Below are positions 3,901 to 64,000 of a stretch of DNA of 64,000 nt, one piece after another (positions within the stretch are counted from its first letter, which is position 1; each line of letters opens with the position of its first letter). This stretch comes from Phoronis australis (Eukaryota; Animalia; Phoronida). The notes under the pieces were generated by a model. The model was not told the origin of the DNA. It did not search any database and saw only the letters and a list, made by a program, of their open reading frames with translations. A program made the translations under genes and the position numbers. The DNA is taken from the NCBI GenBank assembly GCA_002633005.1, contig NMRA01000019.1, positions 235,555 through 299,554 of the forward strand. The letters run 5' to 3'.

Positions 3901-6900
3901 TTACTATTTCAGTAATCCATCAGCTGCAGTAGACTCTGTAGTATTTAGTCCACACTAGAAAACAATGTCCACAAGTCCTGGACACTTGGAATTAAAGGTG
4001 GATTAGTAAAACACAACAGCTTTGATTTACTTTAGACATAAAACAAACACTTAAATTCAATACTTACAACAGTCTTAATGGCTGCCACCCAGTTACTGAA
4101 AGATACAATTTTTATAAAGTAATGAGGTTTCAACAAACATGTCTCCCATGAACAACAGATGCAATCTCAAATAAAATGAGACTTCTCCAGAGTCTCAAAA
4201 TGTTATTAGCCAATTCAGAGAAATGTGAGTGCAACATATATATTTTGTAATCATGATGATTTCATTTCAGTATAGAGGATGCTAAAATCATACTTCAAGT
4301 TGCTGTAATTAGCTCGCAAAAAACCATGTCCCGTGAGACAAAGAGCACTTCTCCCATGAAACATTGCATTCTTCCATGGGATGCTTGAGTTTCCCATGGG
4401 ATGCTTGAATTTTCCATGGGATGCTTGAGTTTCCCCTGGGATGCTTGAGTTTCCCATGGGATGCTTGAGTTTCCCATGGGATGCTTGAGTTTCCCATGGG
4501 GTGCTTGAGTTTCCCATGGGATGCTTGAGTTTCCCATGAGGTGCTTGAATTTCCCATGGGATGCTTCTTCTCGTGCCCCATGTAGCAATACAAATGATAT
4601 GCTATAAACAAGTATGTTTGTGAGATGGGTTTTTCAAACCGACTGGGTTGTGCATTTCTCAAGAACTTTGAGCAATTAGATCATATGAATGACAAGTTGT
4701 GAATTTAACAAGCATGATACATCCCTCACTTGACATTTCGTTATTTTTTGAAAAAAAATTCAAATAATCGATGTCATGAAAACTATTTAGTCTTAAAGTG
4801 TGGTGGGTATTATGATTACATAATAATGAAATTGACACAACATGTAATAATAACCATAAATTTGCATTTTATGACACGTTGTACTGATAACGTCTGCTTG
4901 CAATACTATTTCCAATTTACAATTTGCATGTAATGAGTCGTAGAAATTCCGTAATAGTCCGATATAATGTGCCAGCATTTGAGAACCAGTTTTCTCCACT
5001 TATCAGCATAAAAATAGTAAGCGACAGTAAAAATATATATATAAAACACATGAGTTTAATTTGTACGCTGAACTATTTTAAGTGATAACCAAACACTCAT
5101 TTTTTATACGAGTCATGGTGTGGTTATACTTGTCTGACAGTTGTCTAATTTCCCATGGGAAAGTCTAAGAAATCATTTCATGAAACATTAGAACAAAGAT
5201 CATACAAAATGCTCCATTGTCAGCACAGTTGCCTATAGATGTCTCCACAGTCAGTATCATGCTCTTAATTAATAACTTTTTATGAATTTAGGTGAGTTTA
5301 GCACAACAGAACAATTTTTCAAATCCCATAATGTGACAACGTTTTTGTCTTGTACTGGCTACAAAACAAACTGCGCTCTATTGTAACAAGTAAAATATGC
5401 ACATCAATTCAAAGTTACACTGTACATAGTACAAGGGAAATGTTGGCGTATGTACGTAATGTCCGAGACTTGAGTTGGTAACAGGAAAGGAATCTGATCA
5501 CAGAAACGAATGAAAACAATTTTATGACATTAATGGGTCTATGTGATTATTCGATTTTCTATTATAAAGCCAGCCAACCAATGAGAAACGCAGCTTTAAT
5601 TTATTAGAGAGGACAGGTTAAATTATTTAGATTGCCTGCAACAGTTGCCATTTTGTCATTTTCAGCACATGAGAAGAGCTGGGTTCAAAATTTCTAATCC
5701 TTTAGAACATCAAGTAAAAGAATGTTTCTTACTTCATGTCAGTGTCATCATTAGCACAGAACCAGTTAACATTAGCATCCTTGCTTGGAGAGTCAGGGAC
5801 GGCCATCAGTGTGTTCATACTGCCCCCTGGTGGAGGTTTAGGCTGGCCTGGCACCACACGCGTATAGTTGCCAATAGCCAGAAAGTTACACACATTCTGT
5901 GAAATGACAAAGAGAGCTTAGTAAGGTCAACACAAAAAAAATGAGGAGGCAGTGTGGCCTGGTTGATAAGTGCCCGCTTTCTTTACTCGAGGTCGTGGGT
6001 TCAAGTTCCACCAGGTCACACTGCTAAACCCTTGAGCCAGGTTTCTAGCTCCCCAGCTCGGTTTTAACCATATATCAATAAAGCATAAAAATATTTCCAA
6101 GTGATCAGTGCAATGGGCCCACATGCGAGGCCTGCGCACGTCTGATACAACGTGTATCAGACCGCCTGCAATTATTTTTTAACAAAAAAAAAATATTTAA
6201 TAGTACCCTACCCCTTTACTGATACAGCACAATACACATCCTATGTGAAATGAAATTGGAATACTTTTTTAAATTGATTTCCCATTAACCAATAGACACT
6301 ATTTACACTATGGACAATTTAGAATATCAGATTTTCCCTTGTTGGATCAATCATAAAACACATAAAGCAACCTATGGAATTTTTGGATGTAAAGAAGGAA
6401 GGTTCAAGGTTCAGGGACCACCCCCGATTTAGGAATTTTTTTGCTCTGCAAATTCCTCATTTGTCAACCCCTCTTCCAAAACGAAGAAGTTTGTTGACAC
6501 ACGTCGGTGACATACCTTGATATTCACACTGCCTTTGGGTGACGACTCAGACTGGTGTTTGTACCAGAACAAGTTACCGTCCTGGTACAGAACCAGGTAC
6601 ACCGGCTTCCACTCATCCCCTAAAAATTTACCTGCGAAAAATGCTAAACATTATCATCACATTACATTCAAGACAGTAATTCTGATTCACTATTCTAATC
6701 ATGCTCCACGAAAAATCTGCATGGAGTACATGAATTTCCAAGGCTTGCTACTTGATAATTCTAAGGCAAGTAGACAGCACGGCAACTTAATAGTAAGATG
6801 ACCACAAACAATTTAAAAATCTGAGCATTGCAAAATGTTGAAATTTGCCCAGGAATGCATTGCAAATGGTATGTAGTATCGTAAAAATGACCACTAGGTG

Positions 6901-11002: not shown

Positions 11003-14000
11003 GTAAGCTTGGTCACTGACTATACTTGTTGGATATTTGAACTTCTGTTCAGTTCTGGTTGATGTTGTGGTACTTTATTAACGTTTTGAGAATCAGCTAA
11101 ACTTCCAACCCGTCCTGGTGTCACCAGCGGGTCACCGTCATACTCATACTAGTCATGATATTGATGGTCATTACTAGGACATTACACTACAGCCATACAG
11201 GATCACGTAACCTGACTGTAAACAGGGTAAATAACTATTTACAGGCACGTAGAACACAAGCTGTGATCGAGCCCGTTTTTCAGTAGTTGCCGTTGGCCTC
11301 TCCAAAGCACTAACTCACAACGAACAATAGGCAATGACCATCGCCTCTGTTGGCCCGAAGCAGAGGCGATGCAGAGGCTATAGGCGTTCTGTACGCCGGA
11401 AGCTTTTCGGCGAATTATGCCTCGCACCGACTAAACCATCAAAGTCACGTTGTTATAAATACCTTTTGCGCATAGTCATAGAGGAACACCTTAGGAGGTT
11501 GTCGATGTGTTTAAGTCCTTCCAACTCGAACAAATACTCCCGTTATGAAACTTTTTCTTCGATCAGTCCCTATTTCAGTTCCCAAAATCGTGAAATCAAA
11601 ATTTTCATTTTTTTTAACCAGGCCGAAGGTCAGAAGTTGCGATCCTACCGGCGAACTTTGAAAGCTGAAGTTCCTGCCCTTTGCGTACGTGCTGCCGGGA
11701 ACCAGCCGTGCATTTTCCGTGTTGTTAAACATTAAAATGTCAAATATGTGCACAAAGACTATATTAAATGTCATATCAACACCATTTATTTTTTATCAAA
11801 TACAAACAATAATTCATTGAAATACAAACAGTTTCAAGTAACGCCAATTAAAGACAAGTATAAGTGGTGGCATTTTGGAAACGAACATTTGACTGACAAG
11901 ACCGCAATGGCTCACCTTTGGCCTATTTAAAAATTATTGAGGTTATGAAGTCACATCACCTAGCGAGCGGTAAAAATTGGAGCGTGCGCAGTACAAAAAT
12001 TTTGATTTCACGATTTTGGGAACTGAAATAGGGACTGATCGAAGAAAAAGTTTCATAACGGGAATATTTGTTCGAGTTGGAAGGACTTAAACACATCGAC
12101 AACCTTCTAAGGTGTTCCTCTATGCGCAAAAGGTATTTATAACAACGTGACTTTGATGGTTTTGTCGGTGCGAGGCATAATTCGCCGAAAAGTTTCCGGC
12201 GTACAGAGCGCCTATAGCCTCTGCTTCGGGCCAACAGAGGCGATGGTCATTGCCTAAACGAACAAGTGAGCAGGGGCTGACCTATTATTGCATGTTGGCG
12301 TATGGGCCACTATAGTGGAGTGTTTGCCAATATGACCTATCGCCAGGATTTTGAGTGACAGCTGAACTGACCAATCAGAGCATAGCATTCTTGACACCTT
12401 CCTTTCCCAGCCGCCATTTTACCCGACAAACAACACGTAGGGTAATACTTACTGTTTGTTTGTCGAAATTTTGCAAGGGGGCGGAGCGTGCGATAGGTCA
12501 ATTACCATCAAATGTAACAAGAATCTGGAATTACTAATGAAGTACTTGTTAAACAGCTCGATATTAACTCAATAATAGCCCAGCTACCAGTGTTTCAGAT
12601 AACACATTTTTAGGAGATGGTTATACTGTTTTTCAATCTAGTTTTGTTCTTCTCGGCGTGTAAGAGACACATTCTAGAGACAGAAAATCATTGTTTCAAT
12701 TATGATTTCTTCCCATTTCAGATGTGTTCTCATTGGACAAAGCTGTGCATACTACTACCTTGCCTGTGACTCTGGAATCAGATTTATTTTTTGAAGTTGT
12801 CAATCCTGAATATTTACGATATACCTACAAAATCAGAGCAGCGAAAGATTTTGGAGGGCACTTTGTGAGTATTGTGCTGTTCATTATTTAACCAGTATTG
12901 AGCCTGGAGTAATGTGGTAGCGTTTAGCTTTCCAGAATATTCCATGTCACGATTACACATGCTTTCTAGTGTGTATTAAGTTTTAGAATTGAAGTGACAA
13001 TAAACCTTCCGTAACAGAAAAGAATTTTTGATTTAGACTGTCACCACTTGCTTTTAATTTGTGAAATTCAAAATAGTGATCTGTGGCTTTGAAAAGCAGT
13101 TCACTACTGCTTGGTACCTGGCTATACAAGTGGACTTGTCATGGCGTGTCATTTTATTTGCGGAGCTTTGTCTAAAGGAATAAGGAATACTCAGCTCTTT
13201 ACAAGTCCAAATATCACTTCTTATCTGATAAAGGAAAATGTCATTTTCAGGCCAATTTTAAGCCAGTAAATGGTTTTAAATCAACATTTTGATGGTACGT
13301 CTGAAAGTACTTTTACTGACTCGCATCTAGTGAGCTTAACATTCACTAATTGGTCTTACAGAACCAGAGTCTACAGAATGCTCACCTTGTTCCTGCAGTA
13401 CCTCAACACGCATGCAGTGATATACAGAACAGGCTGTTGATCGAAAGCAATGTGGTGCTTATTGAGAGAGGGTGAGTCTGGCCTGGTGAAAGGTTCACTG
13501 CAACAAAGCAGTTATCACTCTGGCTGCATGTATTCTGACTTACAAGTATCTAATGCCTTATTGTGTTCGCTCCAAAATGTTGAAAAATGTCAGGGGGCAT
13601 TTCTGGGGCATAGCCAGACTTGTTCATGAGACCCAAACCTCGAAGACAGGTAGTTTTATAAGACTTGATGTCTGTCAGTCTTTACTATCATTCCATCACC
13701 TCATCTGCTGTTTTTCCTTCTATTGAGAATTAAATAAGTACATGCAATTTCACAAATTATTATCAAAAATTAAAACAAGATTCTGCATGCTTTCATGGCT
13801 AAAAATCTGCAACTTCCAACTCAAACAAGTTTTGAGATAGTTTTTACGTGTCCATTCCGGACATAGTGCAAAACAAGTCAATACATGCGTGTCCCCCAAT
13901 AACGGTCACAGTACTTTTGACCCTAGAATGTGTGTTGTGTGATTTTTCTTGAAGACATCTTTCTTGTATTAAAAATGACGCAGTAATTTCTAGACAATCA

Positions 14001-15099
14001 GAAAATAAAAATGTTTGGTATCTTCAAGTATCATTTTGTTGCTGTAGTAACCATCCCATGTTAGCCGCTACATGTTGTATTGTTTCCTGTTGTAGAGGCT
14101 GTTCATTCCTGACTAAGGCAATCAATGCTGAGCAGGCTGGTGCCAGTGCTGTCATCATCATGGATAACAAGGAAAACAATATAGATCAGTATATAGACAT
14201 GGTCGATGATGGGACAGGACGCAAAACTTTCATTCCAGTTTTCTTTCTACTGGGAAAAAATGGGTGAGGATTTGTTGCACAGTGTATTTTTGGTAGATGG
14301 TGAAGCAATTTAGTTTGTGTTTAAAATTTCTGACATCTAATCACATACACTGTAAAAGGATATTGTCACGGAGGCAAAATGTTCCTCTATGCGAGCCGTT
14401 GTGAAAAAGAAATTATACTGCCTGGTGCAGCCAGGTGGTGCTTAGAGTCAACAGTTCCATGTGATCAGCCTCCATTGCTTTCAGGATGTCTCCCATTGTG
14501 TCACCTCACAAATCCTGCGTTAATCAGTGTGTAGACTTTTAATATTGAAATTTTTATAAACAATTGGTAAATTTTACATTTATTGTATGGTTTTTGGAAA
14601 ATGTACTATGTGGTTTGTGGTCAATAGATATCGCTGAAGAGTTGATCAATGACAACCGAAGACAGTTTTACATGTTTGTTTATTTACCAAATTCACTCAA
14701 AATTATTTTACAGACCTTCGTTCACCCTTCTATCTAGACCGTGGTGATAGTGCATTGACAGAATTATTGCTCTACTTATTTCTATTTGTGTGTTTCACCT
14801 AGTTTATGACTTTGAACATTTTCGGCTTTATATTTTTCTCTGCTTTCATTGATCTTTGTTTCTAGTTGTTTTACATACTTGTCTTCCTCTGCATCAATAC
14901 TTCCTAAAAGCTCTGCATTTGAATTGAGCATTTTTGTTTGTGACCTAGAGATCAAATATCGTAACAATTATTTTACAGGTATATGATTCGTAACACACTT
15001 CAAGAACTCCATCTACAAAGTGCTATCATAAACATTCCTGTCAATGTGACAGGCATTCCTGTACATCAGATTCGTCAGCCGCCGTGGTCGCTATGGTAA
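10927..15099 (+). CDS. PRADC1: Protease-associated domain-containing protein 1 (5 exons, 205 aa)
   Basis: Exons 10927-11002, 12722-12864, 13362-13471, 14096-14263, 14979-15099 (GT-AG, 618 nt). Signal peptide, then LFFEVVNPEYLRYTYKIRAAKDFGGHF, ERGGCSFLTK, FLLGKNGYMIR and the C-terminal IPVNVTGIP...QPPWSLW*, matching the hallmark PRADC1 motifs. Confidence 0.95.
11328..12256. mobile_element. Non-autonomous Mutator-like (MULE) foldback element in PRADC1 intron 1
   Basis: About 260-280-bp near-identical terminal inverted repeats (11328-11605 and 11996-12256, starting TAGGCAATGACC), flanked by a perfect 9-bp TSD AACGAACAA (11319-11327, 12257-12265). Confidence 0.88.
12722..12864 (+). CDS. PRADC1: PRADC1 exon 2
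   Basis: TTTCAG acceptor, GTGAGT donor; AKDFGG motif. Confidence 0.92.
13362..13471 (+). CDS. PRADC1: PRADC1 exon 3
   Basis: HLVPAVPQHAC...LIERG; GTGAGT donor. Confidence 0.92.
14096..14263 (+). CDS. PRADC1: PRADC1 exon 4 (PA domain core)
   Basis: GCSFLTKAINAEQAGASAVIIMDN...FFLLGKNG. Confidence 0.95.
14979..15099 (+). CDS. PRADC1: PRADC1 exon 5
   Basis: YMIRNTL...QPPWSLW followed by TAA. Confidence 0.93.
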
Positions 15100-26544: not shown

Positions 26545-28104
26545 CTATGCGTTTCTTATTGGACTTCCTTTTAAGTCTAAAAAGTCCATTTCATCCAAAT
26601 TTGTCATGTAGAGATTGTTTGGTTTTGGCTTGTGATAACTGCCTCCATTGAACGTTCTTGAGCTCGAGCGAGACGCTTGGAATCGCGTCTTGCGTTTATG
26701 AATCAATTGCATAGCAACGATAGTAATTATTAGCGTCCCCAAAAATGTTCCAGCTATGGCGCCTATGAATTGGGTTAAGGTAAAGTAAGTCGAGTCAAAA
26801 ATGGAGGATGACATCTCCGAGCGGTTACTTGTTTGAACCATGCCGTCTAAGCGTTCGTCGCCGTTAACGCGCGGAGATGTGGCGTCAGCCTTTCCGCGGC
26901 GGGTTGACGTCGAAAACAACGTGGAGGACGACTGAACAGGTGAGCTCGTGTCACGTGCCGGCCACGTAGTTTGAGATGGACCCCGTTTAGGCCAAACAAA
27001 GTTCATATTCAGTGTCACTTCGCCAGCACTGTTGCTTGCCAAACACTTGTACGTGCCCGTTCTGGCGTCAGAATCCAAATTTAAAATTGCTACATTTTTC
27101 ACACTTTCACCCTCCTTGCTGGCGGGTGGTGGATTGAACCTAACCTTCTGCCCACCGGGATTAACCCAAGTGATGACGGGTGGCGGGTCACTTGCAGCCC
27201 CGCATTTGAGATAACCTCTATCACTTTCAATCTGTACGTCTATTTCGTCAAACTTCGGAAGTTCACATTTAAGTTCGTATTGTTGGATTCTGTCAAACGT
27301 TCTGTCTCGAAATTTAGAAGGCGAAGCGCACTTGGGTTGCAACTGATCTTCGAAGATCCTTCGGTGGCTGTCGTAAAATATCTTAATCCAATTTGTATCG
27401 CAGCTACAATGCAGCGGATTACCACCGAGGCGGAGAACTTTAAGATTTTTAAAAAAGTCCTCGATTCGTGGTTCGAACCGTTCGATTCTATTATCATCTA
27501 ACCACAATCGCCTGAGACTTGTGTTCAGGGGTCTCAAAACGTCTGCTGGCAGTACATCCAACGTACATGAGTTTAAATACAATCCGTTGGTCGACAGGCC
27601 TCCAAAGGCATTTCTATCCAGTTCTAATCCTCCGTTGCCATTTAGGAAAAGATCCGTCAGGCTTAGACCTGCAAAGGTATTAGCCTCGATCAAACGGATT
27701 TTGTTGTCACTCAGATCTAGTAGTTCTAATTCTACCAAATCACTGAATGTTCCCGGACTAATAACTTCTATTCCACAGTGATTCAAGTACAACTTCTTCA
27801 GAGATCGAAGTCTTGTAAAATTGGACCGCTGCAGAAGCGTGTTTCTGAAATTATTTTTTAGCAGATACAACGTTTCTGTGTTGGATGGAATACCGTCGGG
27901 AATTCGGTCTAAGTTTTTATCGTTACATCGAACTACATGAACGCTACAAAGACACGCGCTGGGACACGCGTCTGTTGCCGTGGCAATGTAGAGAAGCAGG
28001 AAAAGTAAAAACGACGCAATTCGAGATGGTTGCGACGAAGTTATGGAACAGTAGTGCATCGACGTGAGGGGCCCGTGAGGCTGCAAGACATCAGATAACG
28101 TCAT
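26545..28104 (-). CDS. Single-exon LRR + Ig-domain type I membrane protein (LIG family; LRRC4/LRRN/Kekkon-like), up to 519 aa
   Basis: Hydrophobic signal peptide ending ATATDA; LRRNT CPSACLC...VRC; about 6 LxxLxLxxN repeats; LRRCT NPLHCSC...PKCASP; Ig domain LKCGA...ITW...GTYKCLASN; Ser/Thr stalk; TM FIGAIAGTFLGTLIITIVAM; basic stop-transfer sequence and short tail. Confidence 0.95.
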   Translation of the reverse strand: MTLSDVLQPHGPLTSMHYCSITSSQPSRIASFLLFLLLYIATATDACPSACLCSVHVVRCNDKNLDRIPDGIPSNTETLYLLKNNFRNTLLQRSNFTRLRSLKKLYLNHCGIEVISPGTFSDLVELELLDLSDNKIRLIEANTFAGLSLTDLFLNGNGGLELDRNAFGGLSTNGLYLNSCTLDVLPADVLRPLNTSLRRLWLDDNRIERFEPRIEDFFKNLKVLRLGGNPLHCSCDTNWIKIFYDSHRRIFEDQLQPKCASPSKFRDRTFDRIQQYELKCELPKFDEIDVQIESDRGYLKCGAASDPPPVITWVNPGGQKVRFNPPPASKEGESVKNVAILNLDSDARTGTYKCLASNSAGEVTLNMNFVWPKRGPSQTTWPARDTSSPVQSSSTLFSTSTRRGKADATSPRVNGDERLDGMVQTSNRSEMSSSIFDSTYFTLTQFIGAIAGTFLGTLIITIVAMQLIHKRKTRFQASRSSSRTFNGGSYHKPKPNNLYMTNLDEMDFLDLKGSPIRNA

Positions 28105-31100
28105 CCTCTTGAAATCAGTGCGTACTCTCTGTCGTTCACTTACCTATTCATTATAACATCAAAGTTTTCCGTCAAATTGCCCAGACAGTTTGCCAATAAA
28201 TAGTTATGGAATACCTTTAAGACTTCAAGTTGGCAAGAAATTTAATTCCCTTGTTTCCTTTTCACTTAACTCTCCAAATTATGATGCAGCAATTAATACT
28301 GGCAGAGGCGACACCGATCCAGGGTATCAAGAGTCTTGTAATTAAAACCCAATTGTCTCCGCCGATGTTTTCCAGCTGACAGTATGTTAAATCTGTGTTG
28401 TCTGGTCGGTGCAGTATGCATGTACATATTCATCAGATTAATACCGATATTAAAATGACTTGGTTGATAACTCTGAAAACACGTGCAGTAGCAAGGAGCA
28501 ACATCAAGAATGTTTTAACAACTCGATGTGTATTTCGTTGATAAGACAGTCTTCCAATGTTCCGATGTGTCCTCGCACTGATGTAAACAGAACACAAATC
28601 CTTCAACAAGGCTATTAGCCGAAATAACTGTTTATACACTGATGCCACCAAACGCAAACTGTGAAATCATTCGGTATCCAAGGCGGTTTCACAGCAGCCG
28701 ACAGCAAGCGACAAACTATGCATCCAGCCACGATTTATACACAACCTCTCGCTCATCCAAACACTCTATGAATGACGTATTTCTTCACTTACAGGAACTT
28801 GGTATCTTTTAATCTCCCCAAAAGTTGCGGTAGACTCAAAATGAATGACTTCACTGGTTTGAGAAAAGCCAGAAACCAGCAAGATTCCAACTATCTTACT
28901 CAATATTCTCTGAATGCTTGTTGTGGTGTTCTGTTAGACTGGCATTATGACCATTTGGCGGCTGTATCCGGCACCAACCAAATGGCTTATCGGCGAGATT
29001 CAATAAACTGCGGCCGAGTGTCTCCAACTACGAGTTGGAAAACGCATTTATTAAGAAGAGTGGGCACTTAGATGCGTCACATATGATCCTCAGTCAGATA
29101 AAAAGGCACGCCTGTCATTGCATACGCGTGTTTTGTCCCTAAATATATCGCTCCGCTTATCGGGTTAAAATTTTGTCGTCTCTGGTCACACCGCGCTGCG
29201 TTGCAATGGCCGTCTTGTCAAAACGTTGTCACGCTATGAATGTGGGATTGACAAAGGTAGTCGATCAGATTACTATCTTCCACGGAGGGCGTCCCGTCAT
29301 CACACTACGACAAAACAGATGGCTTACTCAGTATGATTGGACGACAACATCCCGAGTAGACAACATCACACTTGACGAACTTATTTCCTTCTTATTAACA
29401 GTTTTGAGTACTGCATGCGGTTGATACTTTCAGTTCTAATTTTACCTTAGAAGTCCGGAATTTCCTGAAAATAGAATAAAATTCAATAAAATATAATGAA
29501 CTTTGAAATTCAGAAAAAAATATACAAAGGGATCATTCAAGATCGTGTTTTGTTGGATGCGTTCTTTTCCGAGAAGAATTTGGCAGAGTCTAGTGGCATC
29601 TACATACGTCTGCCGCAAAACAGAATAATGCATTGCACATACCACGTTAACTTAACAGATAAGCATAAGTACTACATGCTATATCGTAAAGAACATTTTC
29701 CACGTTTATCTAAAAACGGGTCAGATTGCTTCATTAATTAATGGCTAACAAACCACTGGGCACTTTTCCCTCCTGGGAGTATTTCGATTTTGACCTCTGT
29801 CCCCCGGAATGTTATTACGAATAGCAACCAACACGCATCCAACATAACCTGCTTGCTTGATGAATCAAGGCTGTAATGAAATTTCTACAGATCAGAGGGA
29901 GGTGTCTTCCGCGAAAACAAAGTTAAGCCTATAGATACGTTCGATCCAACATATGAGTGAAAACCATAGCAGATCTTAGCCTTCTGCACTGGTCGTCGAT
30001 GGATTTTAGTTGGCTTGAGTGAAGTGACTGGTAAAATAATTCAATTGGAACTCGTCACAGTTAATTAAAACAAAAAATAACGAGATCATCTTTAGGAGCA
30101 TTGAGAGTTCACAATCGGTTCTTGTAAAAGTTGAATTGATTTAACCAAGTCCTTGGTGGAAAGTGGATTCCCGATGTGTAAATCTAATCACAGAATTAGC
30201 CCAGTGATAGCTTATCACGGATTGTACACGTTCGCATCAAGGGGGCGCATGTATAGTAAGGCACAGCAGAATCTTAAGAGGGTGAACACCTCGTAATACA
30301 AATGCTACAGTTATAGTCTGAAATGTGAGAATTAATAAGAACAATGCGTTCCTGGTAGACCTATGCCCTTATGGCTAATATTTCATGGTTTATTCGGAAA
30401 TTGGACAATTAGTGTAGACTCGCAAGTCTAAGCACTCGGCGTCAGTTTTAGAAGACATTTAGCTATATTGCCAGATTTTCTCATCTGGCAACACTTTTTT
30501 ATAATAACTTTATATCCACGAGTAACTTAAAAGCACCGAGAACACAGCCACCATAATGTTTATACAAATGAGCCACAATAAAAATTGCATTAAAATCCCA
30601 CGTATCTAGATCATGAAAAGACTCCATTAATTACAACATTTCCATACACAGTTAGTACTCCATCGACAGGCCGTTAAGACGGCGTTTTTCATTTGCCTAT
30701 TGTTACTGCCCTGGGGTTGACCAACTCCACAAGTAGCCTACCAAACGAATCCTGGGTAAAATTCGAATTGTAATCGACTGTTCCAACTGTCTTGTTCCAC
30801 TGTAGAGGAATGGACCTGATTGGCAACAATTACACAGCACGCTGGAAGATGGATGAATTCTAAATGTTGAGTCAGGGTATCATCCTTCCGTTATCTAAGT
30901 ACTGAAGTAGACGTTCTTGCCGTTTGACACCCCTGATATTAGGACTTGTAACTGATAAGTTGAAGTTAGAACAAGTTATCTCTAATCGAGAGATACAAAG
31001 TCAAGAATCCAGGTACATTGGAAGCGCCACGACCAGTCGTGATACAGGTGAAGTGAAGGGTCTTAAAATCAAATTAATCACCAAACGAAAATCGATTTGT

Positions 31101-51340: not shown

Positions 51341-53417
51341 GTTCGTGGGATTTCAGCTGGCGACTTTCCCCAAATAATGATAATGAAAAATCTCGTTCAA
51401 AAGAACTACTTGTATACATTCTAGATACTAGACAAGCAGGCTTAGGCCTACATCAGTCACCTGAGAGGGTGTTTGGGCCAGGTGTGATGTGTAAAAAGAT
51501 GCAACGTCAAAGTGAATCATACATAATATAAATAACAATCAAGAAACCAGTAAAAACTGGAAACATCAGCTTAAGCAGTAAGAGATTATATTGGTTCCTA
51601 GCATCAGCCAAGTTAGCATATCTTGCGGGCGGCAGCGCAGCGCCGGGCACCGACTTGTTACCTTACTACCGATCAAGGCCGATAGATGGCACACGTGTAC
51701 TGCGCGGTCCTGGTTTGTGGTTGTGACTGTATCTATATTGTAGGTAGGACGGGTCTAGTCAATAGCTGTGCAAGTCAACTGAATGGAAAATCATGCATGG
51801 TTCTGGGCCGTGTTTAATGATTTGAGAATATGATATAGCAATGTGGCAGTTTTTAGTTGTGAGTCCTACAAAACGGATGACTTTGAGCTTACCTTAGATA
51901 CGCTTGTGTACCTTATAGTCGTTAAAAGTGATGCGAACCGACGCTTTGTTTTATTTTTAACACTCAGTGACTCGTAGGCCGGGTGAGGCGCAGGCAATGA
52001 CCTACATGTATTAGGCTATATTCTCTCAGTGGCTGGACTAAATTATTTTTAGTCAGGTTCTATTTTATGGACTTCCTCCTTGAGTCACCGTGACGGTGGT
52101 CTTAGTTAAAATTAGCCTGCAGACAAAATTCTTTAGTCACGAACGATGTTAAAACATCTTATTTCACCTCGTAACAACCTCCGAAACACCAGTAATGAGT
52201 ACTTAATACAACACTTTCGAAAGGGCCCCGACCGCTCAATGCAGACACATTTTACTTCATAAGCCACTTACTCAGATACCCGGTCAAAGTTCACTCCAAA
52301 GTTGCAGTCGAAAAAAGCATAATGACATTTATCTTTGGCCAGTATGCCCTATCCGTCTGTGGGACACCAAAAAAAAAAAAAAACTCGCAATGGTCATGCG
52401 ACCAATTCTGTTAATAACAAGGTTTCGTTTTTCCAGTTTCCCGGCCCGACTCGTAAATTGTCTCTTTGTCGCCGAACTATATATATTTGACCGGTCTCGC
52501 GAAATGTCGATTTCTAGTTATTGACAGTAGTTTATGAACCCGGCCCTCGGACTGACCGACTCGCGGGCGCAACTCAGAAGGTACACTGCGGTTAATTTAT
52601 GGACGAGTCGGTTTCACCACCTGGTGCCTGTGAATTCAGGCGTGTTTCCGTGATGTGTGCCTCCTCCGTCGGCCGGAGTGCAGGTGCGTCAATCGCGTCG
52701 TTGATGAAAACACTGAGGCACTACTCAGTGAGAATTCTATGGAGGGAGGTTTCACATGGACATTTCACATAAGCGGAGGAAGTACAGTCATAAAAAATAA
52801 GCATAAACCATGAAGTTGGCGGGAAAATCTAAATACATTCTACAAATTTGCACAAAAATTTTAGATCGGGTACTTAGGCCTAGCCTTTATACCTATAGTG
52901 ACATCAAAGACGCTCTCTACGGTCTCTGGTGACATTACATATAGGCCGGCGTGCCATTGTACAAGTAACAAAGGTTACATTTTGTCCACGAGAGGGCGAA
53001 ATACATAGTTTGTGCTCTTTAGTGGAAAAAGTACGTTAATCCGAACGTATTTTGCTTGTAAACTAAACCATGTAAGGCTGAAACTTGCTTTTTTGAACTT
53101 TCAAATCTGTCTCGGTAAATTATTGATGCGGACTGTTTGTGTAATTGATTCCTATGTGGTACCATGACGCTGAATGGGAAAAGTATACCTGATTTGCAAT
53201 ACAAAACAGACATTCATTCAGATTATACGCCGTGGCCGTCAGCTGGCCAGCCTGTCACTGTCACTGTCACTGTCAGTGTCAGTGACTGAGTCGAGAAGAC
53301 TTCTTCCTTTGTCAATTTGATATCATAGCGTCAGGCAGATCAACTACAAGACAAGAGGAGCAAAGATATTTCTGTCTGAAAATGCAAACTGGTGCTGCTG
53401 TAAGTCCGTGTGAATGA

Positions 53418-53513
53418 ATGTCTGTAACCTGTGTAACCATGGGCATGGAAGAGGAATTTGACAGGAGTCTTGTAGACTTTTCTGTAGTCATGCTGTGTGG
53501 AACAACATTTAGT
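53418..53513 (+). CDS. PNKP-like exon 1 (to GTTFS of Walker A)
   Basis: First in-frame ATG at 53418 follows a TGA; a stronger Kozak context ACCATGG is at 53439; GTAAGT donor. Confidence 0.78.
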
Positions 53514-56500
53514 GTAAGTAGCATTCAATGGAAATTATTTCCTGACTCAATTATTGTGTTCTGCTCGTTACGTCGTGAAAGTTGTATCAACATTTAGAGC
53601 GAACAGCCAGCGGTGATGCATGCAAAATATGGGAGTCAACCGACACTCACCTTGTTCGTTGCTGCTGTTTAATTGAAAGACAAGGTAATAAAATCATTTT
53701 CTCGAATAATGCTCCACATTTTTGTAACAAAGAAAAGATTATATTCATCATTTTAAAAACAGTACACTCATGTCACGCGCATTTCCTAATTTTTTGCACC
53801 AAGGCCATTATGAGGAGAGCTCAAGCTGAGCGATTTGGGAATATTCATGAATATTCATGACGAGGTTTGAACCTTTGCCCTTTGGGGGCACCTGATGATA
53901 AAAAGTGTGCTTTTTTTCTAAAAGTTGTGCCCAGCAGACTTAGTATAATTAAAGTGGTAACATATGAAACAGAAACCCCAATTAGGGCAATCGAAATAAG
54001 AACAGAGTCATGTTTTACCCAAGTGGCTGTAAGTTGACTAGAGCGTTACATTTTTGAAAGAGTGTTGTGGTTTTAAAAGATGCGCCCTGGGGGTGCAGTG
54101 CTGCAATGTACTGGTGCCTTTTTTATGTGCTGATGGCACAAAGGCACAGTCCAGGAATATCCTTGCAATTGTTAATAGTTGATGATTCATCGTCATAACT
54201 CACTGATTCAGGTCCAATCCCCAGTTTGAGAATTTATTTGACCCATCAACCACTCCATATAAAGTGCGTTTAAGATACTCGAAGTTTGGACAAATGCATG
54301 CAAGGCAACTTCTCTGTTGTGTTTTAGGGCAAGACTGCCATCTACAGAAAGCATTTCTCTGCCACTCATGAGCGCTTTTCAGCCACTGAACTGTTCAGTA
54401 AAATGCCCGAGTGTGGCCTCCATTATGCTGCTGGGTGTGTCGTTCAGTTGTTACAAAAGGCAAGTTCAAGGTCATGTGGAACCTTATTGATGAAACTGTG
54501 CGTTTAGCCAAATATCTACAAACCCTGGAAATGTAAATTCTGTGAAACTCGCATAAGAGAGATTTATCCAAATGAGGCAAAATTTGACTCTTTTGAAAGA
54601 TTGAGTACAGAGACTGGAACAACCAAACTGCGGAACTTACTTTAAGCAAAAATCTGACTTATGCCTGTCTGAATTCTGCAAATTTCGATGTTCATTCTGA
54701 AGGTAAAAATCCTATTGAATTTGATTTTTTAAATTTGTACTAATCTACCATTATTTCTTAACAAGACCATGCTTTAAAGGCACTTTCGTTTTTTTTTCAA
54801 TAAGTGATAGCTACTCGTGCCAAAGCAAAATATTCGTTTAAAAGTTCCTCACTGTTACGGAGAACAGAGCTTCATTTGAATTCGATTTGCCGTTTCTCAG
54901 ATCAGAATTAAATCCTTCAAAGATTGGTTATGAATTTAACAAAAAGCATTTCAGTTTACATTTGGAGTCTCAGTAATAGTCACTCAGAGGGGTCCATTAG
55001 TAACTTACAGGGGTCTATTAGTAACTTACAGGGGTCTTGCATTGTGAAAACCAATTTTCTCCACTGAATAACCGGCATCAAACTGGTTGTCATAATGCGT
55101 GACCCTGTGTCTTTTGCCAAACTCTCTCCCCATTCTTTTATCTGCACGCCATTGTCCCCAAAGTAAATTCTAGAGTTTGTGAAATTCACAAGAATCATCA
55201 TTTGTATTTCTATGACTTTTCATTGGGAATGGCAAGGTTTTACTTCCAGAATAAAAAGGTTGTCATCGACGATGATAATCTAAGTCGCCAAGTGCGTGAA
55301 GGTTACATCTTACAGATACAAAGTAAAGTGAGTATTTAGGTAAACCATTAAGCCCTGTCTACACCTGTAATAGTTCTGTAGCATTTCTGCAAAAAAACAC
55401 GCAACATGTTTTGGCCTGTCCAAACTTTTTCACAACTTCTAAGAACGTGTATTCAAATGTAACAGAAATAATGCAAGAAATTTGGAATCAGAAATAGTGA
55501 ATGAAAAATGGACTGCAGGCACAGAAACCTCTGCATTGTTATTGGTGCAGGTGTTATAGTAGGAGCATTAATTAATTGAAAGAGAAAAAGAGGGAAAAAT
55601 TCAGTAACCTCTTCTTTGTGAGTCTGTCTTAAGTTTGTACTCTTTTGTTGTTGTGTACAAGCTGGGACATTGCTCCCACATACAGTACCTGTGAGCTGTT
55701 CTGATGTTTTTTGTCCAATTGAAAATCTGACAGCTCTATGGGGGCTACCATTCCACATTTGTCTCAACGGTCACATGACACAAAGTTTACTTCTGATAGG
55801 TCCAATCCTAAAATATGTTTCAGGATGTTTCCAAAATATTGCTGCATATCACGCCACACAAAAGCATGCTGCAACAAGTTCATTTTCTAGTACTGGTGTC
55901 TTTACAACTGTTTCATAAAAGTTGCCCTGTGTAGACAGGCGTTTTTGACTTTGTTGAAACTTTCAAGTTAAACGAAGAAAATAATCAATGACCATCTAAA
56001 TACTGTTATCTCTTGTCTAGCTAGAATTTTTAAATTGTCTGTATACCCGGTTTTCGTTACATTTTTGTTTAGATCACAAACCGTTACGAAGTTGATTCAA
56101 AATTGTTTATTAGAGATTTTTGGTTTTACAAAACACTCACAGTTCATCACTGATTCATCAAGCATGTCATCAGGAATTAATATAAGACACTGTCAGTGTT
56201 TTGCAAGTCCAAAAATGACTTCTCTTCAGAGTAAAAAACAAGTTGAGAACAATTTATAGTTGTTATGGTCTAATAAAAGCAAGATTTAGTTTCTACGACA
56301 GATTGGGTTTATTGCCTCTTTAAACTTTTTGATTTTAAAACCATGGTTATATATAGTTTTTGTCACTTATTATCAAATGCAAAGTGTCGAAAAGGTCGTA
56401 TATTTATTCTTTGTCAAATATTTTTATTTTGAAATTACCCAATTGCTATTGATACATTCATGTAGGTTCCTCACATCCAGATAGCCTGCTTAAAGGTCAC

Positions 56501-59500
56501 GCCCCATTTGGGCGAGTCACAGATTCATTGGTCAGCACAGACCAGATTAGCTGAGAAGGTTCTTCGAGGCGAAGACAAAGCAACCACTGTTCACAGGAAG
56601 TGGTGGAATGCATCATTTGGTAATTCAGCCATGTTACGTGAACAGAACCCTCCCCTAGTTAACAATAAGAATTCACATATCTGTAGACACTTGGAAAATA
56701 ATGCTGCTTATAGAGAGACAGCTGGGCAACACAGCGTTACGATTATTGACAATGATACTAATCGTGTATGTTTTACCACCGAAACATGTCCCTACATTTT
56801 ATAAAAATTGTTGTCGTTATTCAAACTTTTCTCGTGTTCGTCAGTGCGAGACCTTTTGATACTAATCGCTATTGCTTGAAACTGCATGAAGCCATTCACA
56901 TTCAATACGCCCCTATGTTGAAAATATTCCATAAATACATTCAGTCGTGAGCAATATGTAGTTAGTGTCCATTCCTGTTACAAGCTATTAGTTGTTGCTT
57001 AGTGTAATGAATGTTCTGAATGGTTACTGACAGTTCACTTTTTCAAAATTTCGTTGCAGAATGTTCGCTAGCGAAAGTTTCATTACGTCAAAGGGCCACT
57101 CACCAAAGACCCACTGTAATTCATAGTATATGTATTTTTGGTTAGGAGTAAAGAGGATTTGAGTGAAGTTTTAAAATAGTTCATCCAATTAGTTGTTATT
57201 GTATTGGAGGCTAGAGTGCATGTGCTACTGAACAATTGTTAGAAGTATGAACGCCTCAAACACAGTGTGTGGAAAACATTGTGTTATACAGTACTTGTGT
57301 ACACAGTGGAGGAGAAAGCCCTACGATAAAGTCACGCGATTTTCAGATGGCCCGCCATTTTGGGACATGAATAAATATTTCCGAAATAAATTTTTCATAG
57401 TCCACGAAATTCGTACAAGGTCCAAAAACTGTTTTTCAATGATCCTCGAATTTCGGTATAATATTTTGACTCACTTTCTTGGTGTATGTCTGAGGGTATA
57501 AGTTTCAGAAGTATGTTTGTCTGGTGAAGCCAATTTGTCTTCTCATTCTGTAGAGGAGCCTGATTCTGGTGATGGATTTGACAAAGTGTCTTCAGTTACC
57601 ACCAGTTTGGAGTATTCGACACCTTATAAGGTATTTTGGAAAATTTTTCCTGTTTTCAATGCTTTTAAATACTCATATCAGTGCTCGGTGCTTAGCTTAA
57701 TGCCAACTTGCCAAATTTGTCTTCCCGAAAATCCCAGGTCCCCAAATGAAATCTAAGGTTGCCAAAACTGACGTTGGAAGTCACCGACCAAAGAAAAGCT
57801 GTGCCGTTCTCAGCGTTATAAACAAATTACACAAATTAAATCTTCTTCCATATCAAGTTTTCAAGTTGTCTTCCATACTTAGGACGTATGCACCGTTCAA
57901 ACTCCTGCCAATGGAGAATGTGGACGATTGAATACATTGGAGGCACGTGTTTCATGGTCCGACCTTGCCTGATTTTTGTTTCCGTCTATTTACTTCCTAT
58001 TGTAATTTAAGCGCATTCGATTTGTGCTTATATCTGAGGGTAGCAGATTCCCCTATTTTCATGAAATAAATGGAACAATTGTGAACCACTGCTTATGTTA
58101 GCTTAGATTGGTTTGAAACACTTGTTTTGTGACTAAAATCGCTGAGTATCATTTTACATTTGGTTGTCTTGCACCATGCATTTCATATTTGCTAATGTTT
58201 TAAGTCACTGGTTTAGAGTCAGGAGGCTAGTATTTTCTGATTGTCTGCCAGCTCCTTAGGAAGGAAGGCTGTTATAGAGAAATTCTTATAAGCATCTTGG
58301 TAACATAGGATCGAGCTGTGTTGAATTAAAAGTGCTTGTGCCCTGCTGTAATGGAATGAACTCTTCATAATGAATTTTTTATACTGAATGAAACCCACAT
58401 GTGTTTTCTCCCTGTACACATTTGGAAAGATTTTGTAAGAATGATCCCCTGACTTGTTTTTCCTTTCCACAGTCTGAGTTGTGAACCAGCCAACTTTACC
58501 CACAACGCTGCATGAACTATGAAATTGAAATTTTAATTCAGGGCCTAAGAATGTTTACTGTGTGAGGTGTGCAGTTTGGCAAAGCTGTTAATTAATCGGC
58601 GCGGAAAGTGGTTACATCACCCCTAGCAACTATTCCAAATATTGGAGACGAACAATACAGTGGTAGCCTGTTCACTGGCACACATTTGTTCAAACTGACA
58701 AAATTCAACAAAGCTAAGTTATTAAAATCTGAAGCTCATGCCACATCCTCTGTTAAACCATGTAACTTAGCATATTGACTTTTTTAACAATGAATAACTG
58801 GTGATTTTCCTGTTATAACATTTGCCCCAATGTAATTTCCTGCAGAGGTGTGGCAAGATGGTGTAATCAGGACTGCCTCAAGACAGTGGCACTTTCCCCC
58901 CTATTGCTGGGACCTTTTCAAATGCGCGTTCGTTAGTATACTGTCCTTTGTCCTCTGTGTTTGCTGCTAAGTTTTGGCGTAAATCAATAATTTGCTGTGA
59001 TTAGTGTCAAAAAGAGTATTTAATCACCAAAAAATCGATCAAGATGCCTTTAACATGTTTCTTGTGTACAACTGTCTCTTGTACAGTTTGAGGTGCCGTG
59101 TCTGTTTATGGAGTTTGCTGCCCTGCTTAATGAGGAAGGTCATCTGGCTACTGGTATTGTGGAGGCTCTCAGAACGTGGACCACTACATACCCCTATGGA
59201 AGGTTGTGTGTCATGCAGAAAGGTCAGTTTTGATGTAACTTGGAAAAGTGTGTGAGCATTACTAGTTGCTGACAAAGCTTTGTGAAGCAAGGAGTAGTTT
59301 TAGTAATTAAAAATTTACTGTCAAGGAGAGCAAATAGTGTCATAATTGTGTACTTCGTGTCAAATTTTGTTTTTAATTTTTAACATTAAAATGATTTGTT
59401 CGAAAAGATAGCTTGTCACACAAATAACACATCCAAAGATGCATGGATTAATCAAGCTTTTGTGGAAGTTATGGTGAAAATTTATTGTGAAGTGTTCACA

Positions 59501-62500
59501 AACAGCTTGCTCCTCTAAAACATAACTTTAAGTATATTTTGTTCCTCTAAAACATAGTATACTTTGTTCCTCTAAAACATAACTTTAAGTATATTTTGTT
59601 CCTCTAAAACATAGTATACTTTGTTCCTCTAAAACATAACTTTAAGTATATTTATTTCTCTAAAACATAACTTTATGTGTACTTTGTTCTTCTAAAACAT
59701 TAAGTGTATTTGATTTGTAACACCAAGTTCAGACTGTTGTGGATCACATTCATTAGGGGCTGTTTACTAGTGTGCTTGGTTGCTGGCTAAATCGTGAAAC
59801 CCAAGATAAACCTTTTCTCTCACTTATCTATCTAGTGAATTGTCTTGCGTGTTCTCGTTGAACTCTCAAGGTAGAAGCCGTCTTTAACGCGCTAATGGTC
59901 TGTTTTTCAGTTGATGATGGTCTCAGTGAGGACCAGGTGGTGGCGCTTGTGAACCGTCTATCGACCCAAGTCCCTTCTACCCCGTTCTATCTTCTGCTGT
60001 CTAATCACGACAGGTGTCGTACGAACATAGACCCATTAATGGCCGACATGATGCTTCTGCACAGACTCCACTTGTGTGACTTTCAGCATAAAGTGAGTAG
60101 AATAAAGATTTTTGTTTTCTAGCAGTCACATTTCAACATTGTTGTTAAAAAGTGTTATTATTATTTAGGTATGAGCAGACTTGTTTAAACATTCTCATTG
60201 AAAACTATTGCGTGCAAGCATTCATGTTTCAATGTTCTCATTAAATACAAACAAAAAGAAAACAAAAAAAATGACCCATTATTCCGCGTCATGATGGCTG
60301 GGCGCAATTGGGATTTCATGCAATAGAGGTTGCATAAAAATTGAATTGAGTGTCATAGTAGTCATCTGTCAAGACGGCTCATTTAACAGAAAGCTAACAA
60401 TAAAAATGTAAAAGCTCTTCGCTCTTCCTATAGTTTGGACGTAATCATGAACAAACTTGATATTTTTAAACTGATGCACCGCACGATAAACATAGATGAC
60501 CATTACACTATAACTCGATCATCTGTTGCAAAATAACTACACGTGAATTAATCGTTTAGTAAGAGTGGTCGTGCTTGCAAAATGCACAACCACATTAAAG
60601 TGTTCGTGAGGACAATCCAGACCTCTACAGACATGTGTTGATCCTACGCATGTCCTTTTTGAATTGGTTGCCAGGATTGTGCGAGATTGTTCGAGATAAT
60701 GATTTTGCGATGACAGAGTTGTAGATTCAGGCATTGTTTATATACTGTGGTTGAACATTTGCTAAGAGCTGTCTACAAACACAAAACTTTAAGTGATCGA
60801 AAGGTATTGCAGTAAAATGTTCACGGCTGTCACTGCGGCATCAAAAATCTTTAGTACTATGGCAATACACAGTTATGAATGATGATTATAATCATATTGT
60901 TTACATCATGTCGCTAATTGCGCTGTACACGTGAACATTGGAAATTAGGTCAACGTTCTTGGTTAGTCTTTCACAATGTGCGGACCATTGTGTGTTAAGA
61001 GATTACGGCTGTTATGATGCATCATTTCAGCGAAATTAAGTGGAAAAAATTTACAAGTGGAATTGACTGTCATGACAAGGAAACAATAGTCTGGTCAGCA
61101 CACCATCTGTTGGCCACGTCATGTGACTTAATGAATTTAAGTCTATGGCAGAAATCTTAACGTATTCGTTAGGTCGCGTGATGTGGCCAACAGCTGCCGT
61201 GCTGACCAGACTTAAAAATGTTTGCAATACGGTTTGTGTTGACTTATTATACTTTGCTGTACTCTTTGTATTGGTTAAGACTTCACCTAGTGTCAGTGGA
61301 GACTTAGCGGAAATTCCGTCAGGAACTTGACAACGGCACCTCCTCATAACGTGGAGTTGACCTCATGACCCCACAGATCTGAATGTTTGTTTAACCACAA
61401 AAGCCACTGACCACTTTTTGTGACCATTTGGTGAACTGAAAATTCTGTTAAGCTTCATAATTCGATCTGTTCTTATCTAGCGGTAAACATGCTTATGCTT
61501 TCGTTTTTTTCAGGGTTCGCTGTATTGTGGTACACTTACAGACAGTAATCATGTTCTGAAGTCCTGTGCATTAAAATGTCTCAAAGCAAAATTGTTGCTC
61601 AAGGATCCCACTGTGGTAAGATTTCGTCATCCAAACTGATTTTCCTTGATTTGAAACTTTGCTCTCAACATACAGACAGTATGTTGCCTGGACTGTGTAG
61701 AATAGACCCACAACTCTTGCAAAACATTTGCTGCTCGAGATCTTTGCTTATGGAAGGAAAACAGTGAATCCTATCCCATAAGTCAACATTGCAACCTAAC
61801 CATCTATTCACTTCTTCTGTGGCCACCATTTTGCAAGGGTACGCTACTAAGCTCCCAATTATACTCACGAAGCACTTGCCTTTCATTTGCGTGATTTTGC
61901 GTTGTCTTACTTTTTCACAAGGCTCTCGGCTCTGCACAATGCAGTCCTGGTAATAGCACCCCTTTGAGCCTGATTAAATGTACTTTTGCCCTTTTTCTTC
62001 GAAAATGGAATGCTCCCATCCACTCTTCTTAGTCAGCATTCTGTCCCCCTTTTGACTAGAAGTGCTTGGACAGGGAAAGGGCACAGGCAGATTTTTAGAT
62101 CAAATTAGTGCATCTTTACCTCAAAACCTGCTGGAGTATTAACAAAAGGTACATGGATATGGTTTAACAAGATGGCTGCTTGATATGGATTTTCTGCTCC
62201 AACTTCTATTGTGATAGAAGCTATGTAATCTCTGCTTTAACCTTGGTGCATTTCTCGTCGTGTCCACCATGACATTTCAATAAGTCTTGGACGCAAGTGA
62301 ATGGTAAACATGAAGAATGTGCTTTAGAAAGTGCAATCTGCCAGACGGTAAGTCTGTTGGCCATTTATGGACATTCATACACCTTGCTGATTCACCCAAG
62401 TGAATCTGCCTATCATTTATTTTACAAATATTTTGCACAATCTGTGATTTCACTTAGTTTATTTTATGATTACTGTACTTTCAGATCACCAGCATTGGTC

Positions 62501-64000
62501 AGCCCTGTGATGTGACACTGCCCGACGTTTTAAGATATGTTGTATTTACAAGTGGAGATGATGATCTATTACCCACAATTCCGTTCTTCTCTCGTGTAAC
62601 TCCCTGCAATCTTGTCTTCCAATGCACTGTTGATCAGTACCGTCGGATCTTCTTGATATGCTCATCTTATCAGAGTCTTGAAAGGTATTCTGTGCCTTAA
62701 ATGTTTTGTTTCATTTTGTAGGATACTGTCCTGCTATGTTTTAGAACTTTGCACTCAAATAGTTGCACTCCATGAAACATTCTCTGCTAAAAATATGTAG
62801 CACGGTAAAGATGTGTCTATATCTGGAGTGTGTATAGTGAACCTTAGCAGTTCATTCTTGGTCAAGGCCATACTCTACACAGTAGCTTACCATTCAGGTC
62901 AAGCCAGCGTATTGAGCCTGGTCTTGAACAATAACTGACTGCCAGTATGGATCATAGACAACAGATTCGCAACTCCGATATTTTCTTGCGAAATATGCTA
63001 GAGAAGGCCCCACCCTCTATACACAGCAAACACGCCTTCTGGTTGGTGTATTGTGACGGCAAATACTTGCTTCTATTTTACTGTCCAGTACAACAAAAAA
63101 AAAATTTCGGTATTGAAATGCTGTTCAAAGTCTTCCAATAGTAGAACTCTTGATATAGTGAATACTTTTGGCAATGCTACCAGACCACCAGACGTACTTG
63201 GCGGAAGTGAAATGTGCTATGCATGCCAGGTGTTGCTAGAGAATAGTGATGTCATGGCTTAGGTGCAAGATCACAGATTTCGTCCTTTGAAAATATACCG
63301 AGTTGGCAGTCCATGTACTATATTCTTTGGTGTCAGCTCTTTCCAAGTTGAGCCCAGTTTCATTACTGTGTATAAGGGTTCTCAATCAAAAGTCATTTCT
63401 GACAGAATGTCAGTCCATGGCAGTTTTCAACTCACAGAGGAAGGTTTTGTAAACCTACAGTCGCTGTCCATGAAGCAGTGGCTGCTAAAACATCTTGTAT
63501 CAGTTGTGTTTATATTTGAAGACCGTGTTGTGTCGTGCATTTTTAACAATTCCTTTCGAAATTGCTGTTGGTGACCTGAGTAAAGACCCTGCATGGAGTT
63601 TTAAATGTTTTCATGTTTATATACTCAATGAAATGTTGTTGTATCAGAAGTATCTTCTAATAGGCATTACATTTGTCTGGTAAATAAAGTTGTTGTATTG
63701 TTTCTGTATTTTAGGTATAATGCTCTGTACGCGTCCAGCTGCAGTAAACATAATGAACCCAGCAAGTTTGCGCAGACATGTGGAGCCATGCGAACAACAT
63801 TACCTGCCTCTAGAAATGCTGGTGCTAGAAAGCGTCTTCCAACTTGGATGTTACCTGTTAGTGAAAGACCAGAGCATCAGGAAAATAGTAAAAAAACAAG
63901 AGCCAAAAACCAAGAATCAAGTCGAACGAGCAGTGACAGTGATCTTAAGAGGAAAGAAGAGACTGCAAAACGTTCTAAGACTGGTGCTAAATATGAAGGT
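53418..64000 (+). CDS. Uncharacterised PNKP-like protein: P-loop polynucleotide-kinase-like domain + degenerate HAD domain + Ku-binding-like motif (at least 10 exons, at least 481 aa, 3' partial)
   Basis: Exons 53418-53513, 54328-54459, 55250-55327, 56466-56619, 57554-57630, 59087-59222, 59911-60092, 61514-61615, 62485-62684, 63715-64000+ splice into one uninterrupted frame. Motifs: VVMLCGTTFSGKT (Walker A), KVVIDDDN, FEEPDSGDGF, CLFMEFAALLNEEG, SLYCG, RKRLPTWML. Confidence 0.85.
54328..54459 (+). CDS. PNKP-like exon 2 (GKTAIYRKHF...), GC donor
   Basis: TTTTAG acceptor; ends AAG|GCAAGT. Confidence 0.8.
55250..55327 (+). CDS. PNKP-like exon 3 (NKKVVIDDDNLSRQVREGY)
   Basis: TTCCAG acceptor, GTGAGT donor; aligns to PNKP GKRVAIDNTN...R..Y. 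Confidence 0.85.
55352..55941. mobile_element. Probable MITE in PNKP-like intron 3
   Basis: Terminal inverted repeats GCCCTGTCTACAC / GTGTAGACAGGC. Confidence 0.45.
56466..56619 (+). CDS. PNKP-like exon 4
   Basis: TGTAG acceptor, GTAATT donor; VPHIQIACLKVTP...WWNASF. Confidence 0.78.
57554..57630 (+). CDS. PNKP-like exon 5 (FEEPDSGDGF)
   Basis: CTGTAG acceptor, GTATTT donor; matches the PNK kinase C-terminal FExPxxxEGF motif. Confidence 0.8.
59087..59222 (+). CDS. PNKP-like exon 6 (start of HAD-like domain)
   Basis: TACAG acceptor, GTCAGT donor; FEVPCLFMEFAALLNEEGHLATGIVEALRTW. Confidence 0.82.
59511..59710. repeat. Minisatellite with alternating 32-bp and 25-bp units
   Basis: TCCTCTAAAACATAACTTTAAGTATATTTTGT and TCCTCTAAAACATAGTATACTTTGT arranged ABAB, then degenerate A copies. 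Confidence 0.93.
59911..60092 (+). CDS. PNKP-like exon 7
   Basis: TTTTCAG acceptor, GTGAGT donor; lies within ORF 59895-60122. Confidence 0.85.
61088..61212. repeat. ~49-bp-arm inverted repeat (hairpin or small MITE) in PNKP-like intron 7
   Basis: AGTCTGGTCAGCAC...CTGTTGGCCAC...TAATGAAT pairs with ATTCGTTA...GTGGCCAACAG...GTGCTGACCAGACT. Confidence 0.85.
61514..61615 (+). CDS. PNKP-like exon 8 (GSLYCG)
   Basis: TTTTTTTCAG acceptor, GTAAG donor, 34 codons. Confidence 0.8.
62485..62684 (+). CDS. PNKP-like exon 9
   Basis: TTTCAG acceptor, GTATTC donor; same frame as ORF 62512-62700. Confidence 0.78.
63715..64000 (+). CDS. PNKP-like exon 10 (disordered region with KBM-like motif; runs off the window)
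   Basis: TTTTAG acceptor, phase 2, 95 open codons to the window end. Confidence 0.82.

Follow-up and report, generated by a model that had tools for sequence, protein, structure and literature searches.

Animal PNKP carries an N-terminal FHA domain and has its phosphatase ahead of its kinase, and to our knowledge all known recruitment of PNKP to DNA breaks runs through that FHA domain. The subject of this text is a gene of the phoronid Phoronis australis that is laid out the other way round. It lies on the plus strand at the end of a stretch of 64,000 nucleotides, hereafter the window (GenBank assembly GCA_002633005.1, contig NMRA01000019.1, positions 235,555 to 299,554 of the forward strand; coordinates below are those of the window). 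Judged by its sequence profile, the encoded kinase belongs to the PNKP type; it stands first in the protein, has lost the catalytic Arg-Asp pair, and is followed by a probable pseudo-phosphatase and by a tail with a candidate Ku-binding motif.

Three described systems are the natural points of reference, and the papers on them are cited here from excerpts. In human PNKP, D397 takes the proton from the 5'-OH, with R396 positioning it, and T424 contacts the end (PMC13640680, a preprint); the substitution D396N abolishes PNKP activity (PMC13066744). In hnRNPUL1, the site of the catalytic Asp is occupied by Asn, and the protein is a dead kinase still binding nucleoside triphosphate (NTP) and RNA (PMC13066744). 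As for Ku, the published binding core is R-X-X-P-X-W, with WRN KRRLPVWF and MRI TRVLPSWL as validated examples (PMC4831024), and the motif of APLF relies on R182-K183-R184 and W189 (PMC5207133).

The gene is real, spliced and expressed. The earlier note on this DNA, made from the letters alone, had joined ten phase-compatible exons into one frame, and that structure holds: the frame runs through 481 stop-free codons and is open at the window end, 64000 (see the table). Intron 2 is of the GC-AG type, its GC donor at 54460 being backed by 7 RNA reads; the remaining eight introns are GT-AG. The RNA evidence comes from three raw runs with the same species label, with ∼18-19% of each examined. Eight of the nine junctions have 7 to 14 reads, in which the first mate is always on the minus strand, the pattern that most stranded libraries give for an mRNA of the plus strand. 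Support for the exon 4-5 junction is weaker, its 2+2 reads carrying one synonymous difference, and none of the nine joints is present in the contigs of a fourth RNA run. Exon 10 is covered to a depth of 2-15 in two RNA runs, and because 13 reads extend beyond base 64000, the gene continues past the window. At 63959, where the window has G, every RNA read has A (Glu468Lys), which reflects either an allele or a difference in the assembly. At the other end, the ATG at 53439 is in a better start context than the one at 53418; the region of the short upstream open reading frame also holds an unused donor-like GTAAGT at 53400 and, in one RNA run, a 12-base insertion allele at 53357.

What kind of protein is this? 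Used singly as queries, the exons found no relevant match in Pfam, NCBIfam, PHROGs or PDB sequences, nor did exon 9 in Atlas (top score 0.76); PNKP-type kinases were therefore gathered by a motif scan, and of the 58 viral loci obtained the 40 with Walker A at the right distance were used for a profile. This profile gives residues 22-168 a score of 44.7 bits, where the highest of 1000 shuffles reaches 10.0, and without the motif used for selection the score is still 31.1 bits against a best shuffle of 11.0. On this profile evidence the kinase is of PNKP type, as the earlier note had proposed from Walker A, which is indeed split by intron 1, and from VVIDDDN and FEEPDSGDGF, which are present together with RKRLPTWML in the tail. 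It begins at residue 22 of the RNA-supported frame, and neither a phosphatase-before-kinase order nor an N-terminal FHA domain was found there. The protein is thus not an ordinary PNKP, because its kinase is PNKP-like and comes first, and the lack of an FHA domain, foreseen from the letters, has been borne out. Of the parallel with T4 Pnkp, the order of kinase and likely HAD stands and the likeness in sequence does not: the T4-type profile yields 8.0 bits, a score that 1 of 1000 shuffles equalled, whereas most PNKP-type profiles give 31-45. A PNKP-type module with the kinase in front is the better model. The sub-profiles rank as kinase-first (36.0 bits, 213 rows), stand-alone (31.4, 22 rows), phosphatase-first (16.7, 9 rows) and T4-type (8.0, 20 rows), a ranking that is indicative only, because they differ in depth.

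The motif scan also revealed the source of the best matches retrieved, proteins of ∼300-340 residues in which a PNKP-type kinase (AAA_33) is followed by a HAD-IIIA (PNK3P) phosphatase. This kinase-first module occurs in large phages and giant viruses (80 of 83 loci kept, and Atlas clusters too) and in myxobacteria, Promethearchaeota and others (39 loci); its two halves both match mouse PNKP (E 2.6e-40), and its members are intact, with R-D in 213/213 and D-x-D in 208/213. The best pairwise matches to the phoronid protein are kinase-first members, giant-virus proteins among them; they cover residues 70-200 and span the kinase-HAD boundary. Identity in the kinase is 24% at best. A literature search found no paper on this family (L081-L199, ∼310 residues). 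The module is patchy, and an Asgard origin is unsupported, the full module being found in 1 of the 121 genomes of the archaeal phylum tested, namely the seed genome. Against proteins of 614-2000 residues the kinase-first profile had 226 matches; among the 120 of these that were listed, most are aldo/keto-reductase fusions and none comes closer than 10.5 bits to the protein. Two of the same 120 (P0003 and P0004) join an intact kinase-first module to an NAD-dependent DNA ligase with BRCT, possibly a single-chain heal-and-seal DNA repair enzyme. On one viral contig (L108:2495-4853), a kinase-first PNKP-type gene lies close to a second kinase-HAD gene whose phosphatase domain is T4-type.

The catalytic state of the kinase was judged by alignment to the 213 kinase-first modules, a conserved column being one with 85% or more. 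The Arg-Asp pair found in all 213 relatives is Ala51-Thr52 in this protein, a point on which HMMER and HHalign alignments agree, and the D-N-T motif is replaced by D-D-D. Kept are the Gly/Gly/Lys of Walker A, the Walker B Asp83, Arg92, Arg129 and E-P..GF. The kinase had first been taken as intact, and on this comparison that view has to be given up: 5'-OH kinase activity is unlikely, because the general-base Asp and the adjacent Arg are lost and D-N-T has become D-D-D, and as a polynucleotide kinase the domain is likely dead. Could it instead be an active kinase or NTPase of altered specificity, with Glu53 or a new Asp as base, acting on something other than the 5'-OH of a polynucleotide or, as the earlier note proposed, still on DNA ends? 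The kept ATP site speaks for this, as does the retention of 10/21 conserved columns in the kinase half against 7/34 in the HAD half. We nevertheless consider it unlikely, since Arg-Asp and D-N-T are lost together, Glu53 aligns with the relatives' Glu that adjoins the Asp instead of replacing that Asp, and D396N by itself kills PNKP (PMC13066744).

Beyond the kinase, HHalign finds residues 20-316 collinear with the whole kinase-first module (probability 97.5 and 97.7, kinase-driven), and both pairwise and profile alignments of the module extend into exon 6. In a test anchored to the kinase, the score of 63.2 fell to 51.6 ± 5.8 when residues 180-320 alone were shuffled, and 6 of 167 shuffles scored as high. 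A HAD-IIIA fold after the kinase is, on such alignments, weakly supported. Its catalytic set (D-x-D, T-N-Q, Lys, G-D) was not found after the kinase: the module alignment shows the loss of the two motif I aspartates, of S-N-Q, of the Lys and of G-D...D, and the aligned positions are E188/A190, T262, T292 and S296. The second domain is therefore best described as a likely, if still putative, pseudo-phosphatase. Residues 320-400, which follow, are hydrophobic with several Cys. Single-sequence folds are low-confidence, with a predicted local distance difference test score (pLDDT) of 59 for exon 7 and 50 for exon 9, and the exon 9 model had a best Z of 3.6 in a fold search. A profile search of residues 310-420 detected neither a second kinase remnant nor a HAD. 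A SWIM finger was also looked for: the protein has no C-x-C...C-x-H, its single exons have no Pfam SWIM match, and an 11-sequence bacterial SWIM profile did not match it.

The tail is 14% hydrophobic and 35% charged, and at residues 424-432 a basic patch with the conserved Pro and Trp lies in a likely flexible region. The pattern [RK]{2}.?LP.W arises in 8 of 20000 shuffles of the protein and [RK]{3}LP.W[MFL] in none of 20000. RKRLPTWML resembles the KRRLPVWF of WRN, and we incline, if only slightly, to regard it as a working Ku-binding motif.

What might such a protein do? From the splicing, the expression, the kinase type and the residue changes described above, we infer a function step by step. 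The kinase, which retains Walker A, the Walker B Asp and two Arg, would on that ground still bind ATP but could not deprotonate the 5'-OH; residues 183-316 would form a dead HAD-IIIA fold; the two-domain module would retain PNKP's grip on strand ends; and RKRLPTWML would dock in the vWA pocket of Ku80, replacing the missing FHA route. Given that the catalytic residues of the kinase and of the likely phosphatase are lost, the protein probably holds broken DNA ends and does not repair them: it may shield, hold or present the ends, or bear further domains beyond the window. Taken together, these steps depict a back-to-front PNKP-like protein, its kinase and likely phosphatase dead, that acts as a non-catalytic end-binding adaptor recruited by Ku80 via the tail motif. 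We offer this tentatively, at a little under an even chance. A broader version is more doubtful. In it, the protein would be an unrecognised accessory factor of eukaryotic end joining, of ancient origin: a PNKP that is circularly permuted and dead in both domains, derived from the kinase-first module that is still active in myxobacteria, archaea and giant viruses, and recruited by Ku80 to cap or sort damaged ends from amoebae to invertebrates. If the adaptor proposal is true, non-homologous end joining would gain a novel type of factor that protects or sorts ends, namely a dead PNKP in reversed order that is tethered directly to Ku80, and an animal gene would be linked to a so far unstudied kinase-first module that microbes and giant viruses share. 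If the motif is non-functional, the protein would still be a new pseudo-enzyme, of modest importance.

Several results, collected in this paragraph and the next, weigh against the adaptor proposal. In the kinase, Asp85 has taken the place of the substrate-binding Thr, and this speaks against retention of the same DNA grip. In the tail, the Ku-binding motif that the earlier note had read is plausible within a charged region; strict R-x-x-P-x-W, however, is absent from the protein, the local sequence being K-R-L-P-T-W, and the strict consensus test fails because Lys stands at -3 and the motif is one residue shorter than that of APLF. Even the strict R-X-X-P-X-W is contained in >600 human proteins (PMC4831024), and the looser [RK]xxPxW appears in 529 of 20000 shuffles of the protein. 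The two tighter patterns were picked post hoc, with the motif already known. The unmatched consensus and the frequency of loose matches would also suit a dead-PNK regulator that binds nucleotides or RNA in the manner of hnRNPU/UL1, has no tie to Ku, and carries its basic motif as a nuclear localisation signal or by chance; there is a published precedent for PNK domains that are dead yet bind RNA and NTP (PMC13066744). This we judge rather unlikely, on the grounds that an L-P-x-W-hydrophobic core after three basic residues is unneeded for import and is close to WRN-cA and MRI, and that the domain pair stems from an end-healing module.

The second domain and the ancestry of the gene supply the other adverse points to the adaptor proposal. 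By itself the HAD region is not significant, 21 of 300 and 10 of 60 shuffles scoring as high; with a broader 71-sequence HAD profile the counts are 23/200 and 598/1000, and this half retains just 7 of 34 conserved columns. The HAD-IIIA fold that had been read directly after the kinase is thus not significant alone and weak when anchored. In a quick tree of 75 rows sampled from the family, the protein is unplaced, on a very long branch of 4.55 changes per site, and no shared repair context emerged among 31 genes that neighbour the module in prokaryotes and viruses. Single-exon, pooled-exon, profile and pattern searches retrieved no eukaryotic orthologue: exon 9 gave 6 candidates, zero of them scoring; exon 7, run against 1.84 billion representatives, gave 2 matches, both repeat artefacts; exons 2-6 pooled gave 971 candidates, zero at E<=10; and metagenome scans (exon 4 and the FEEP...DGF pattern) with a viral scan (FEEP...DGF) gave 0 homologues in 133 loci. 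An alignment of scaffold plus exons was dropped, most exons being misplaced. Such facts (no homologue from any search, the long branch, the HAD region not significant alone, and giant-virus proteins among the best pairwise matches) would agree with a lineage-restricted, fast-evolving gene in which the kinase fold alone derives from PNKP, by a rearranged duplicate or viral capture, and the domain after it is something other than a HAD. That account seems to us quite improbable: a gene that has nine introns and an unbroken frame and is expressed in three runs looks old and maintained, end-to-end collinearity is weakly supported, and searches with single or pooled exons are, by simulation, insensitive below ∼45% identity. 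The absence of retrieved orthologues is weak evidence. A full-text literature search, with most subscription papers outside its coverage, found no description of such a protein, and the excerpts of PMC6264785, PMC8073936 and PMC5852040 hold no account of one.

Table. The phoronid gene and its upstream region, in window coordinates (aa, residues of the protein).
Feature	Position	Strand	Basis
Upstream open reading frame, 11 codons, in frame; TGA abuts first ATG	53382..53417	+	sequence only
Exon 1, aa 1-32; ends in first half of Walker A (53499-53513)	53418..53513	+	joint 53513>54328, 7 reads
Exon 2, aa 33-76; Walker A GKT; Ala51-Thr52 (54382-54387); GC donor	54328..54459	+	joint 7 reads
Exon 3, aa 77-102; Walker B Asp83 kept, D-N-T = D-D-D, Arg92 kept	55250..55327	+	joint 10 reads
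Exon 4, aa 103-153; kinase strand and lid, Arg129 kept	56466..56619	+	joint 2+2 reads
Exon 5, aa 154-179; kinase end (EEP...DGF) and linker	57554..57630	+	joint 13 reads
Exon 6, aa 180-224; likely first HAD-IIIA strand; D-x-D site = E-F-A (59111-59119)	59087..59222	+	joint 10 reads
Exon 7, aa 225-285; mid part, likely pseudo-phosphatase	59911..60092	+	weak collinear alignment; joint 7 reads
Exon 8, aa 286-319; likely pseudo-phosphatase end; G-D...D site = G-T...S	61514..61615	+	joint 14 reads
Exon 9, aa 320-385; hydrophobic, Cys-bearing; predicted beta-rich, low confidence	62485..62684	+	joint 8 reads
Exon 10, aa 386-481+; charged, hydrophobic-poor tail; open at window end	63715..64000	+	sequence, RNA coverage
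Candidate APLF/WRN-type Ku-binding motif RKRLPTWML, aa 424-432	63827..63853	+	sequence comparison; transcribed

The introns of the gene contain short stretches of dispersed repeats (55039-55096, 61160-61225 and 62950-63330), where RNA coverage is deep and divergent and loose ends are numerous, and tandem repeats occur at 59505-59700, in intron 6, and at 4251-4680. Elsewhere in the window are an intronless protein with leucine-rich repeats and an immunoglobulin domain, with signal-like and transmembrane-like stretches (26545-28143, minus strand), a PA-domain exon at 13953-14267 (plus strand), and a repetitive frame rich in Pro, Gln and Tyr on the minus strand (2560-2922).

How, finally, does the phoronid protein compare with the systems already described? 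With mammalian PNKP (PDB 1yj5, 3zvl; TIGR01663) it shares the kinase subtype, seen in Walker A, the I-D motif and the FE.P...GF end, and probably the HAD-IIIA partner fold; it differs in being FHA-less and reversed in order, in the loss of the catalytic R-D and, if the alignment holds, of the HAD aspartates, and in the candidate Ku-binding motif of its tail. T4 Pnkp and Pnkp1 (PDB 1ltq, 4xrp) have a HAD after the kinase, as is likely here; both, however, are active RNA-repair enzymes, and the T4-type kinase profile scores just 8.0 bits here. hnRNPUL1 is alike in having a PNKP-like kinase in which the catalytic Asp is lost and the NTP site kept, as far as the excerpt of PMC13066744 goes, and unlike in its SPRY partner, its SAP and RGG regions and its want of a HAD. 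The motifs of APLF, WRN and MRI/CYREN (excerpts of PMC4831024 and PMC5207133) likewise show a basic run and then L-P-x-W-hydrophobic in a likely disordered region, whereas the candidate motif has Lys for Arg at -3 and is shorter than that of APLF by one residue. Closest of all is the kinase-first module: its members have intact catalytic residues and no Ku-motif tail, but in domain order, spacing and length (∼300 residues) they probably agree with the phoronid protein, and they give it its best end-to-end alignment.

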